From: a virus
Taxonomy: Duplodnaviria > Heunggongvirae > Uroviricota > Caudoviricetes
Virus record (IMG/VR): IMGVR_UViG_2534681674_000011
Length of the DNA: 7,575 nt
Reading direction: 5' to 3' (one strand)
Positions 1 to 3,000 of the stretch are shown one piece after another. Position 1 is the first letter of the stretch. Each line of letters starts with the position of its first letter. The position numbers are program-made.

Positions 1-3000
1 GAACGCCACATAGACGAAGCCCTGCCATGTGCTGACGTAAGTAAAATCAGCCACCCACAGCTGGTCAGGACGTTCTGCCACGAACTGACGGTTTACGCGG
101 TCGCCTGCGGAAACGGCTTTCCGGCTGACGGTAGTACGGACCTTTTTACCCCGGAGAACACCGGCAAGTCCCATAACCGCCATGAGGCGCGCCACTGTAC
201 ATCCGGCCACCCTGATACCTTCGCGTAACAACTGGCGCCAGACTTTACGCACACCGTACACCTGATGATTTTCATCGTATACGCGCTGTATCTCTCTCTT
301 CAGCCAGTCATCGTGCTGCGCACGGGCACTGCGTTTATCCGGATGATGTCGCTGTTGCTGACAATGGTAATACGTTGACGGGGCAATATGCAGTTCGCTG
401 CATACCGGTCCGACCCCGTACTGCTCACGCAGCTTATCCAGCAGCGGCATTATTTTTTCCAGAGGCGGTCGAACTCCGCCTTCGCAAAATAAGCGGAAGC
501 CTGGCGAAGGATATCGTTACTGCGGCGCAGTTCACGATTTTCACGTTCCAGCTCTTTCAGACGCTGACGTTCAGCGGTGGTGAGTCCACCATCACCACTC
601 CCGGTATCCCGCTCATGCTGACGAACCCACACACGCAGAGTCTCTGGTGTACAGCCAATCTTTGGGGCAATGGAACAAATTGCCGCCCATTGTGAGTCAT
701 ATTCGCCCTGACTTTCCAGAACCATACGAACTGCCCGTTGACGGACCTCGGGGGAAAAACGTGTATTTTTAGTCATCCTGTTTACCTCTTTCTCAGGGAG
801 TTTAGTCTCCAGGATTCCCGGGGCGGTTCACATTTTTCCTTCGACAACTTCATGCCCGGGACGACAGGTTTACCATCCACCAGGATGGCACCGCGGCAGA
901 TGGTCCAGATACCCGTACCATCACGGTATGCTGTGGTGTGGTTACCTTCCTTTTCATCCAGAAACTGGTCGAGGATTTCAGGCGCAGACGCCCCTGCACC
1001 AATCAGCGCCAGAACGGCAGCCGACAGGCCGTATCTGATTTTTGCGTTCATGGATATTTATCAGGATTTATCGATTTCAAATCCCTGGATATGTTAAGTC
1101 TTCAGGCCAGCGGTGGAGTCTTCAGAGAACCAGTAATTATTCCCGGTAGTTTTCCTCTGTAGGTTATCAACACATCCTGCGCCTCTAAAATGATGGGCCG
1201 CTTTTCCGGCAACGGACCATCCCCTTCACATAACCCGGCAGCAACATCCATGAAAAACTGCTTCGCCTGCTTTTTCGCCTCAGCTTCGTAAAACTCCAGC
1301 GTGGCACCTTCAGTACGGTCAAGACTAATCGCCACATCTGGCAACAACAGTGACGGATACCCACCAATTTCCAGTGCCACAGTAACAGTAATCTTATCCG
1401 GGTAATTATTTATCCCTTTAACAACCAGTTCGTATTTTTTCTTCATCACTTTACTCTCCCCGCACCGCCTTACGCCGGTCCTCTCTGATTTTGAAATACA
1501 GGTTAGTCAGATACGTCAGCAGGCCAAACAGCAGACTCCCCAGTACACCTATTGCCACCCACTGGGACGGAGAGACTTTGTCCAGCAGTTGCAGTAACCA
1601 GTATCCCGTCCCTACCGCTGACGTGGTGTATGACACACCTGTTGTGATTTTTTCCATCTGATGTATGTCTCCGTCACCGCCGACAGAAAATGAAAGTAAA
1701 GGAAAACAAAAAGCCGCCAGTGTCACCCACTGACGGCCAACTCCGGGAGCCGTGATTATGGCATTCAGGCTCTGCTAAAAATGCCAGATAACATTCCGGC
1801 CCCCCTGGTTCAGGTTATAAATGACACAATATCTTGACAACATCCGTCACTGTCTGTCAGAAAATATACCGCCAGGCATAAGTATCATGTGAAATCCAAC
1901 TATCCTTCTGAGCCAGCACCTCTCCACCGAAAGTCAGTGCTGGCTGTTTTTTTCCTTAATAAAGCATCTGTAACTGAAACAATCCGCATATTGATAATAT
2001 ATTGACAGGCATCATTGCTGTCTGTGAAAAATAAGTCTCTACAAACATATAAGGCCTTTTAGCCAGCGTCTTCTTTCAGGTCAGTCGCTGGCTCTTTTTT
2101 TATTATGCTGCCGGTGCATTTATCTCCAGCACCAGACTTTCTATCTCAACGCCATACGCTGCATTTTTTGTAACATCCGTCAGCGTCAGCGCATTCAGTC
2201 CCAGTGTCAGACTGTCTTTTATAACCTGGAATGCCGGGCCAGCCACTCCATTCAGTTTCGGAGTAACCGTGGCACTGCCGGCGGTGAACACCAGCTCCAG
2301 CGTCTGCCAGTCGTTACCGTAATCGCCGAACTCCCCCAGCTTCGTGTTTCCGGCTTTCCTGTGATGCATCAGATTCACTCTGCCGTCAGTGGTCTGAGTG
2401 AAGTACGACATCAGGAACGGATTACCGGTACCCGTCATCGCCACACCATCAGGAACGGGAGCATCCGTATACAGATAAATCCCCAGCCCGAACTGATTGT
2501 TGGTCAGCGCGCCTGACAGGCGGAACTTACAGGTCAGTCTGCCGCCCTGTGTCAGCAGGGTAATTGCGTCATCCACCGGATGCGTCAGGGACCAGGTTTT
2601 ATTGCTCTGCTTGGTGATCTTAAATACACCATCTGACAACTGAATTCCGCCATCCTTAATGCTCCAGCCCTGCGCAGCAGCCTCTCCGTCTGCCGGCAGC
2701 AGGGAGATTGTGCGAACGGACGTATCTGCAGACGGACCCGATGGCGTGTTGCCGCCGGGCGAGGGTTTGATTTCCGGTGCCTTACCACTGATGAAGGCTG
2801 AGGTGCGCCCGGCTGCGTTCAGAATAGCGGTTGCCAGACGATCCGGAATAATGCTCCTGCGCGCCCATGAACTGAAATGTGTCGGGCGGTTTGATGATAC
2901 CTGGTTTCCATTCGTTCTCGATGCCGCACCGTAATATCCTGATGCCGGAATATCCGGATCTTCTGCCGGCGCGTTAGTGGCGGTATTGACACCGTTACCG

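Follow-up and report, generated by a model that had tools for sequence, protein, structure and literature searches.

The stretch of DNA considered here (the window, 7,575 nucleotides) comes from an Stx1-converting lambdoid prophage, and between its esterase and holin genes two similar units follow one another on the plus strand, opposite the late operon. What do these units encode? A preliminary description, made from the sequence alone, had presented them as an undescribed pair of small RNA genes, antisense to late transcription and possibly Hfq binding. Our analysis indicated that the region, which is identical to phage H-19B, is the pasA locus of the Stx1 prophage, and we hold this to be the best explanation as a whole at a probability of about 85%. 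Unit 1 is PasA, an already known Hfq-dependent sRNA, and unit 2 is already known as an Hfq-bound RNA of EHEC and EPEC. The antisense orientation and the Hfq binding were thus borne out by experiments with PasA and with EcOnc51/EcOnc52 on near-identical, collinear loci, whereas the pair cannot be called undescribed, since both members (unit 1 as PasA, unit 2 as EcOnc51/EcOnc52) had been found experimentally before.

Both units are real features of the spacer. Each carries, on the plus strand, a TTGACA followed by 10 nt, CTGTCTGT, an A-rich hexamer, a GCCAGC-stem hairpin, and a run of seven T residues (Table 1), and every element lies within 1 nt of the place first given for it. In hairpin 1, the arms AGCCAGCAC (1911-1919) and GTGCTGGCT (1937-1945) are complementary at 9 of 9 positions and the T7 run occupies 1947-1953; in hairpin 2, the arms span 2061-2071 and 2083-2093, and the T7 run (2095-2101) is separated by 1 nt from the esterase stop codon (2103-2105). 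Since the minus strand has no T run behind either hairpin, both would terminate plus-strand transcripts only, as had been argued. The spacer holds no ORF of at least 40 amino acids on either strand, in agreement with the earlier statement that the minus strand lacks one. A small-protein reading was also considered, but the only plus-strand ORFs, of 23 (1821-1892) and 38 (1889-2005) amino acids, begin upstream of the RNA 5′ end or cross a terminator, and it was rejected.

Table 1. Coordinates of the pasA locus and its neighbors in the window
Feature	Position	Strand	Evidence or remark
Class II holin S gene	1451-1660	-	Pfam Phage_holin_2_1, E = 1.5e-32
Unit 1 elements	TTGACA 1834-1839; CTGTCTGT 1850-1857; AAAATA 1861-1866	+	sequence
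Unit 1 promoter-like element, 18-bp spacer	-35 TTGACA 1834-1839; TG 1855-1856; -10-like CAGAAA 1858-1863	+	sequence
Unit 1 alternative -10, GAAAAT, 20-bp spacer	1860-1865	+	
PasA 85-nt major form, Sakai Sp12 haplotype	1869-1953	+	probe match, published ends
PasA 236-nt minor read-through isoform	1869-2104	+	PMC8550237 Table S6, alignment-mapped
Variable 5′ domain of PasA	1869-1908	+	haplotype comparison
Terminator 1, 9-bp stem, 17-nt loop, T7	1911-1953	+	published major 3′ end maps to 1953
PasA seed GCCAGCACCU, overlapping 5′ arm of terminator stem	1912-1921	+	identical in window
Unit 2 elements	TTGACA 2002-2007; CTGTCTGT 2018-2025; AAAATA 2028-2033	+	sequence
Unit 2 promoter-like element, 18-bp spacer	-35 TTGACA 2002-2007; TG 2023-2024; -10-like GAAAAA 2026-2031	+	sequence
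Unit 2 alternative -10, AAAAAT, 19-bp spacer	2027-2032	+	
Unit 2 RNA	2036-2101	+	EcOnc51/EcOnc52 CRAC peaks; RIL-seq "pasA.E2348C_0688.IGR"; 3′ part of 236-nt PasA
Terminator 2, stem AGCCAGCG/CGCTGGCT plus T7, abutting esterase stop	2061-2101	+	flagged terminator-like
Sialate O-acetylesterase gene, SASA family, nanS-p type	2103-3953	-	Pfam SASA, DUF1737, DUF6645
PasA-complementary site CUGGUGCUGGA, 3′ end of esterase (nanS-p) mRNA	2125-2135	-	perfect 8-nt seed match

The similarity of the two units is well above background: their global alignment scored 74, against 21.4 ± 5.0 for shuffled sequences (z = 10.5) and a maximum of 39 among 564 other segments of the window. It is concentrated in two blocks, promoter-like (z = 8.2) and terminator (z = 9.1), and the RNA bodies are dissimilar (z = −1.2). 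Retention of both blocks beside a diverged body is what selection on the two blocks predicts. The predicted stability of the fold is significant for 2036-2101 (z = −3.7) and not significant overall for 1869-1953 (z = −0.5), where the terminator stem is the dominant feature. Stem-preserving changes were seen between hairpins 1 and 2 (pair 7, A-U to G-C), at locus L082 (an extra T-A pair inserted), and in a plasmid copy (C-G to U-G), while both hairpins are almost invariant among 15 unique two-unit sequences, a diversity too low for covariation statistics.

The identity of unit 1 follows from published data. PasA has been characterized in EPEC E2348/69 by Northern blotting, Hfq-dependent stability, and RIL-seq (PMC8550237), and is described as a single sRNA with a major 3′ end giving 85 nt and a minor one giving 236 nt (PMC8550237, Table S6). 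Reverse-complemented, the published Northern probe is found without mismatch at 1920-1944. In E2348/69, the 85-nt form runs from 743499 to 743415, which corresponds to its interval in the window; the minor 3′ end (743264) maps to ~2104, at the second terminator. Published plus-strand 3′ ends thus map to 1953 and ~2104, and the 236-nt isoform, by ending at hairpin 2, is consistent with the proposal that this terminator keeps antisense transcription from entering nanS-p. The window is collinear with the E2348/69 locus, with the RNA on the plus strand opposite the flanking genes, in keeping with the published esterase-PasA-holin arrangement "> < >" (PMC8550237). That PasA is expressed in this particular prophage is inferred from the experiments on near-identical E2348/69 DNA.

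Over the 85 nt, the window and E2348/69 agree at 74 positions (87%). All 11 differences fall within the first 40 nt, and the last 45 nt, including the seed and the terminator, are identical. Two linked PasA haplotypes were found, which differ at ~12 sites in 1866-1908 between almost invariant flanks, and PasC-type loci carry a third haplotype in the variable 5′ domain. Divergence in the first 40 nt has been reported between PasA and PasA-2 (Zhu et al. 2026, bioRxiv 10.64898/2026.05.13.724894), and the window haplotype is probably the PasA-2 variant.

Unit 2 corresponds to EcOnc51 and EcOnc52, orphan Hfq-CRAC peaks of EHEC O157:H7 Sakai (Tree et al. 2014, PMC4104026, Table S2), whose prophages Sp12 and Sp4 are identical to the window across this unit. 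With peak edges that are approximate, both peaks lie on the plus strand of the window: EcOnc52 maps to 2036-2113 at zero coordinate shift at 1.18 Mb, which is supported by the position of Rfam STnc100 relative to EcOnc05 and EcOnc08, and EcOnc51 maps to ~2026-2111 once its coordinates are moved by +129 to +138, a correction between genome versions taken from AgvB1 and the EcOnc10/EcOnc11 offset. When the coordinates of Tree et al. were placed uncorrected on NC_002695.2, EcOnc51 fell on the PasA hairpin (1897-1973), but this placement was ruled out by the calibration, which gave a shift of ~+137 nt at 1.94-2.23 Mb. In EPEC, RIL-seq chimera fragment 743267-743294(−) maps to 2074-2101; the entry for unit 2 contains a U7 tract and is the RNA2 (sRNA) partner in every one (100%) of its chimeras. 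In both pathotypes, then, Hfq binds an RNA that ends at terminator 2.

Can the units be transcribed from promoters of their own? Both have a perfect −35 and, at an 18-bp spacer, a −10 hexamer with an upstream TG but lacking the conserved final T; a promoter consensus scan called a promoter at neither unit. The preliminary description had judged the spacing too long for a textbook sigma-70 promoter. This holds for the AAAATA hexamer, but not when the −10 is read 3 nt upstream, where an N18 spacer with an extended −10 would result. The pattern TTGACA-N15-TG-N2-A-N-AAA matched the window only at the two units, with 0 matches expected from 200 shuffles. In unit 1, the element is near-invariant across 23 two-module and 14 one-module loci, with one variable T/C site in the spacer; in unit 2, a plasmid copy of 94% identity shows no change in the element amid substituted flanks. 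The predicted start of unit 1 falls at 1868-1871 and the published PasA 5′ end maps to 1869, and the predicted start of unit 2 coincides with the observed 5′ edge at ~2036. Judged from sequence, both units fit a putative extended −10 promoter with an 18-bp spacer. According to Zhu et al. (2026, bioRxiv 10.64898/2026.05.13.724894), the mature PasA 5′ end arises by cleavage of a longer transcript; in that case the promoter would lie elsewhere.

We infer that unit 2 may be transcribed from its own promoter and be a third paralogue beside PasA and PasC, not a mere tail of the former. In this tentative reading, to which we give slightly less than an even chance, tandem duplication and unequal recombination at the AGCCAGC terminator arm common to the units would have shaped the family and PasC would be a hybrid. 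Whether or not it has a promoter of its own, unit 2 is a diverged tandem copy of the promoter-like and terminator blocks of unit 1, with an unrelated body. The same unit occurs apart from unit 1, next to IS629 in Sakai Sp4 and at ~100 plasmid places, where homology begins directly after the PasA T run. Reads multi-map between identical prophage copies, so the Sp4 peak is no proof of transcription without unit 1.

A real possibility, if one that we would back with somewhat less conviction, is that only unit 1 is a gene. Unit 2 would serve as a back-up terminator or 3′ extension, its RNA would be a read-through tail or processing product, and its TTGACA would be a silent relic. The −10 of unit 2 is indeed weak, the downstream IGR entry is grouped with PasA by Pearl Mizrahi et al., whose account has a single sRNA (PMC8550237), and a separate unit 2 band or transcription start is unreported in the literature. 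Against this reading, the promoter block of unit 2 has been kept as strongly as its terminator while the body has fully diverged, the 5′ edge of EcOnc51/52 lies 4-5 nt downstream of the predicted −10 (GAAAAA, 2026-2031), and on plasmids unit 2 persists alone with the promoter block intact.

As for function, the pasA reading would have unit 1 give rise to the ~85-nt Hfq-dependent PasA, running opposite Q-dependent late transcription and ending at its own intrinsic terminator, with a fraction of transcripts reading through to the second terminator to yield the 236-nt form. PasA would most likely act in trans, since dozens of RIL-seq partners on Hfq are known for it, both core and accessory mRNAs and including virulence transcripts (PMC8550237); these partners are candidate targets. 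The motif GCCAGCACCU, which complements the MEME/MAST motif of PasA RIL-seq targets (PMC8550237, Fig. S5), is the predicted seed and would lie partly within the 5′ arm of the terminator, with one partner site in the neighboring esterase mRNA. On the plus strand, CCAGCACC occurs at 1913 and 2126 only in the whole 7.5-kb window, and the sites homologous to the esterase one in E2348C_0688 and E2348C_1246 are listed PasA RIL-seq target motifs (PMC8550237). RNAduplex runs of the whole PasA and unit 2 RNAs on mRNA tiles of 98 nt did not single out the known site; the energies are dominated by long unspecific duplexes, and we therefore relied on the 8-nt seed match and the RIL-seq motif.

The RNAs are also perfectly antisense to the stretch of the late operon that separates the esterase from S, terminator 2 directly adjoins the esterase stop, and the locus is tightly linked to the esterase-holin junction at ~2,500-2,900 places in E. 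coli genomes. Lambdoid phages do use antisense RNAs, for example, oop and paQ. A main role in cis on the late transcript just upstream of holin S, exerted by convergent transcription and full complementarity and with trans targets secondary, could be built on these facts; transcriptional interference, RNase III cleavage, or dampening of leaky holin expression in the lysogen are possible routes, and the terminators could keep antisense transcription out of nanS-p and stx1. We consider such a main role unlikely, because RIL-seq yields dozens of trans partners and a seed motif, and PasA is plentiful in cultures that were not induced and that should contain little late mRNA. A role in cis is compatible with the pasA reading, the two not being exclusive.

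It is very improbable that the units are repeats without function, or accidental resemblances to promoters and terminators, in a spacer prone to recombination: GCCAGC-stem terminators are generic and the hairpin-only pattern matched unrelated bacteria everywhere, but the similarity of the units far exceeds that of shuffled sequences, the probe and transcript ends match exactly, Hfq-bound RNAs occur in two pathotypes, and published Northern, RIL-seq, and CRAC data contradict it. The generic pattern AGCCAGC-N12-28-GCTGGCTNTTTTTT, searched across genome contigs, had matches only at unrelated terminators, spread over many phyla; none of 120 loci from that scan was a true homologue by BLAST, so that the scan does not inform the taxonomic range.

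Of complete E. coli genomes, 12-13% contain the pasA locus (median, 4 copies in those that have it), and it adjoins stx1 in Stx1 phages. It is unannotated in every RefSeq/GenBank record examined, PasA and unit 2 RNA have no Rfam family, and an Rfam scan of the whole window at E ≤ 1 gave no match within 1830-2101. Lacking annotation and family, the locus will go on being rediscovered by sequence-only scans, and the significance of our results lies mainly in annotation. Three points appear to be unstated in the published literature: that the locus is a diverged tandem duplication; that PasC, on sequence grounds, looks like a unit 1/unit 2 hybrid lacking 150 bp; and that both units share the 18-bp-spacer extended −10 fit, with predicted starts at their observed 5′ edges. 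The literature would be corrected in that the locus is a tandem pair, from which a 150-bp deletion can yield PasC. The third-paralogue reading conflicts with the view in print that tandem duplication is never the source of PasA copies. If it is true, the RNA bound to Hfq in EHEC (EcOnc51/52) is another sRNA than EPEC PasA, one whose body is not the same, and Hfq interactome maps of EHEC and EPEC should list unit 2 separately, as a regulator with targets of its own.

Among named relatives, PasA of E2348/69 prophage PP2 is the closest, having the same locus, strand, ends, and downstream second unit as the window and being likewise flanked by SASA esterase and class II holin genes. It differs in its substitutions in the 5′ 40 nt, the window carrying the other common haplotype, identical to that of Sakai Sp12, and in residing in PP2 rather than in an Stx1 phage. 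EcOnc51 and EcOnc52 have been cited as "homologues of PasA" (PMC8550237); they are, however, the downstream unit and not the 85-nt PasA itself, and were reported as orphan peaks.

PasC, from E2348/69 prophage PP5, combines the unit 1 promoter and a PasA-type 5′ 40 nt, which align with unit 1 and not with unit 2, with the stem of hairpin 2 (GCCAGCG/CGCTGGC), and its T run abuts the esterase stop. It is a single unit without an equivalent of 1918-2067 (150 bp), whereas the window has the tandem pair. The 5′ part of PasC and the body of unit 2 (2036-2060) have no relation to each other, and when the whole RNAs were compared, only the terminator and the preceding TTTTAG matched. PasC could have arisen by unequal recombination between the two units or, alternatively, the tandem form by duplication of a PasC-like single unit.

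Finally, the anti-sRNAs AgvB/AsxR (RF02702 and RF02703) resemble pasA in being short Hfq-binding sRNAs of lambdoid late regions, directed against the late operon; like PasA, they are variable at the 5′ end and conserved in the 3′ terminator. PasA, for its part, is not known to act as an anti-sRNA. Their covariance models gave no match in 1830-2101 at E ≤ 1, and their only match in the window is a single copy at 4100-4159. The two systems differ in location: AgvB/AsxR occupy the pR′ moron site, and pasA occupies the esterase-holin spacer.

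Between the nanS-p-type esterase and holin genes, the plus strand carries two similar modules (units 1 and 2), each with a promoter-like block, a body and a GCCAGC-stem hairpin, for which the preliminary description had proposed an undescribed pair of small RNAs. All the elements listed there were found, with coordinates off by at most 1 nt. Hairpin 1 has a perfect 9-bp stem (1911-1919/1937-1945) followed by T7 at 1947-1953, and hairpin 2 has its arms at 2061-2071 and 2083-2093 followed by T7 at 2095-2101, 1 nt short of the esterase stop codon. Since neither is followed by a T run on the opposite strand, they read as terminators of the plus strand only, as had been claimed. 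The likeness of the two units also held up (z = 10.5 versus shuffles), with a score far exceeding that of every other window segment. It comes entirely from two blocks, the promoter-like one (z = 8.2) and the terminator (z = 9.1); the bodies in between are unrelated. Likewise, no ORF of at least 40 amino acids was found in the holin-esterase spacer. The sequence of these 376 nt is the same as in phage H-19B (100% identity), with ~95% identity in phage 434 and in many Stx1a phages.

The Pas sRNAs were described by Pearl Mizrahi et al. in 2021 (PMC8550237) and by Zhu, Shabalina & Storz in 2026 (bioRxiv 10.64898/2026.05.13.724894), with PasA and PasC encoded in lambdoid prophages, where they are flanked by the sialate esterase gene on one side and the holin-lysozyme genes on the other. 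PasA of enteropathogenic E. coli (EPEC) is Northern validated and loses stability when Hfq is absent, and RIL-seq gave dozens of partners for it (PMC8550237). The reverse complement of its Northern probe, taken from Table S6 (PMC8550237), matched window 1920-1944 exactly on the plus strand. The PasA locus of EPEC strain E2348/69 aligned collinearly with the window, both units being present; the published ends can be placed through it, the 5′ end (743499) at 1869, the major 3′ end (743415) at 1953, the final T of the first T-run, and the minor 3′ end (743264, 236-nt form) at ~2104, at the close of the second. The window and EPEC PasA share 87% identity: the first 40 nt contain all 11 differences, and the remaining 45 nt are the same, including the seed GCCAGCACCU (1912-1921). 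Across 23 two-unit loci, drawn from IMG/VR as well as from reference genomes, the PasA 5′ part occurs as two linked haplotypes between near-invariant flanks, which fits the PasA/PasA-2 distinction published by Zhu et al.; the window carries the haplotype of prophage Sp12 in EHEC O157:H7 Sakai.

The EPEC stretch downstream of PasA was listed as 'pasA.E2348C_0688.IGR' and is sRNA-like, being RNA2 in all its chimeras and having a U7 tract (PMC8550237); one chimera, with escD as partner, maps to window 2074-2101. Two Hfq-CRAC peaks in Sakai, EcOnc51 (Sp12) and EcOnc52 (Sp4) (Tree et al. 2014), were termed PasA homologues by Pearl Mizrahi et al. (PMC8550237). Since Tree et al. used an older genome version, their coordinates were calibrated against NC_002695.2. 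The AgvB1 coordinate is 137-146 nt higher in the latter than in their table, and the regions of EcOnc10 and EcOnc11, which lie on opposite strands, aligned with an offset of 275, the sum of both shifts, giving a shift of +129 to +138 near Sp12. No shift applies at Sp4: without one, EcOnc05 lies within the Rfam STnc100 hit, and EcOnc08 begins 3 nt past its 3′ end. Relative to NC_002695.2, which is the current RefSeq version for Sakai, Table S2 of Tree et al. 2014 is offset by 0 at 1.18 Mb and by ~+137 nt at 1.94-2.23 Mb, and placing its coordinates straight on that genome misplaces EcOnc sRNAs. After calibration, EcOnc52 falls at window 2036-2113 and EcOnc51 at about 2026-2111; therefore, both peaks are the unit 2 RNA, not the 85-nt PasA. 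An IS629 inserted in Sp4 at the equivalent of window 1979/1980 leaves unit 2 alone beside the esterase; the Sp4 peak by itself does not prove independent transcription, because reads from identical copies match several places. The locus is real, and its reading as small RNA genes is correct, with the PasA probe and the published 5′ and major 3′ ends matching unit 1 and the Hfq-CRAC peaks matching unit 2; yet the pair was already in the literature, as PasA and EcOnc51/52.

The promoter spacing had been judged too long, which holds for the A-rich hexamer then taken as the −10 (spacers of 20-21 bp) and not for a −10 read 3 nt upstream. In the latter reading, TTGACA is followed in both units by a 15-nt gap, TGt, and CAGAAA or GAAAAA, giving an 18-bp spacer and an extended −10 TG. 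Within the window, this combined geometry occurs only in the two units, and the predicted starts (1868-1871 and ~2036-2040) agree with the PasA 5′ end (1869) and the EcOnc52 5′ edge (2036). Both promoters are nevertheless predicted and unproven elements, because the putative −10 hexamers lack the final T, a consensus promoter scan called neither unit, and Zhu et al. suggest that the PasA 5′ end is produced by cleavage.

PasA is most likely an Hfq-dependent sRNA that is produced in the lysogen and acts in trans. A seed-complementary site, CUGGUGCUGGA, lies at 2125-2135 on the minus strand, within the ORF of the adjacent esterase gene and in the 3′ end of its mRNA, and the EPEC counterpart of the site is a RIL-seq target of PasA (PMC8550237); the 8-nt core matches the seed perfectly in the window and with one mismatch in the E2348/69 PP2 copy. 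Since the late transcript upstream of holin S is complementary to PasA and to the unit 2 RNA over their whole length, the two might act on late mRNA as cis-antisense RNAs, or late mRNA might sequester them during induction.

The window comes from a Stx1-converting lambdoid prophage and represents its late region, with genes read on the minus strand. The endolysin gene, next after the DUF1327 gene, is interrupted by an IS3-family element, and because this truncates it (ORF 782-1051 spans just positions 2-41 of the lysozyme profile, which has 125), the prophage copy is probably lysis defective. Immediately upstream of holin S, the late-operon strand has two terminator-like hairpins, at 1738-1712 (a strong one of 11 pairs, with a T-rich tail) and 1800-1783; they would be a barrier to non-antiterminated transcription entering the lysis genes, and the record for phage 434 annotates one of them. 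Between Q and stx1A (6198-6113, minus strand), a strong terminator (6140-6121) preceded by a promoter-like site (6198-6171) presumably marks the pR′/tR′ region, for which a short terminated transcript has been described as the sRNA StxS. Directly downstream of stx1B, an AgvB-like RNA and STnc100 form a convergent sRNA pair.

Features of the window by coordinate
Feature	Position	Strand	Basis
NinG	6804-7409	minus	Pfam
Antiterminator Q	6186-6719	minus	Pfam
stx1A	4732-5688	minus	Pfam
stx1B	4453-4722	minus	Pfam
STnc100	4161-4374	minus	Rfam, 190.7 bits
AgvB-like anti-sRNA	4100-4159	plus	Rfam RF02702, 56.6 bits (gathering score 56)
SASA-family sialate esterase, nanS-p type	2103-3953	minus	Pfam
Class II holin	1451-1660	minus	Pfam
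DUF1327 gene	1102-1449	minus	Pfam
IS3-family element and truncated endolysin gene	379-1051		ALIL frameshift pseudoknot 379-495, orfA 450-776; endolysin ORF 782-1051

Among 5,426 complete E. coli genomes, the 150-bp segment particular to the two-unit form was found at 2,533 places in 679 genomes and the unit 1 part at 2,858 places in 692, with a median of 4 copies per carrier; none of the matches listed had an annotated feature for the PasA/unit 2 RNAs. Unit 2 without unit 1 occupies ~100 plasmid places in these genomes. In plasmid pO145_16003, homology starts directly behind the T-run of PasA and includes an unaltered promoter-like block. The copy there (2501-2740 of locus L127) is accompanied by 87 nt that remain of the 3′ end of the esterase gene and adjoins the uilS lactonase gene and IS elements.

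The PasC locus (E2348/69 prophage PP5) and 13 other single-unit loci share the predicted promoter of unit 1, have a 5′ body resembling that of PasA, change to the hairpin 2 stem immediately before AGCCAGC, with its T-run abutting the esterase stop, and lack an equivalent of window 1918-2067. Thus, their structure is what unequal recombination between units 1 and 2 would be expected to produce; in the opposite direction, duplication of a PasC-like unit could have given rise to the tandem form. A single-unit variant, L082 (IMG/VR UViG_2693429634_000003, ~122-425), has a PasA-like terminator abutting the esterase stop, with an added T-A base pair in the stem (GCCAGCTAC...GTAGCTGGC), and is a third terminator allele of the Pas family. 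Together with pair 7, A-U in hairpin 1 and G-C in hairpin 2 with the stem kept, and a C-G to U-G change in the plasmid copy, such stem-preserving differences support conservation of the hairpin.

Zhu et al. related the STnc100 family to PasD; with STnc100, esterase, PasA and holin all present, the window therefore has the published order of PasD-like RNA, esterase, PasA and holin. According to the same authors, PasA copies are not tandem-duplication products, and the second unit goes unmentioned in their work. What remains novel here is the view of the units as tandem paralogues and the reassignment of EcOnc51/52 to unit 2.
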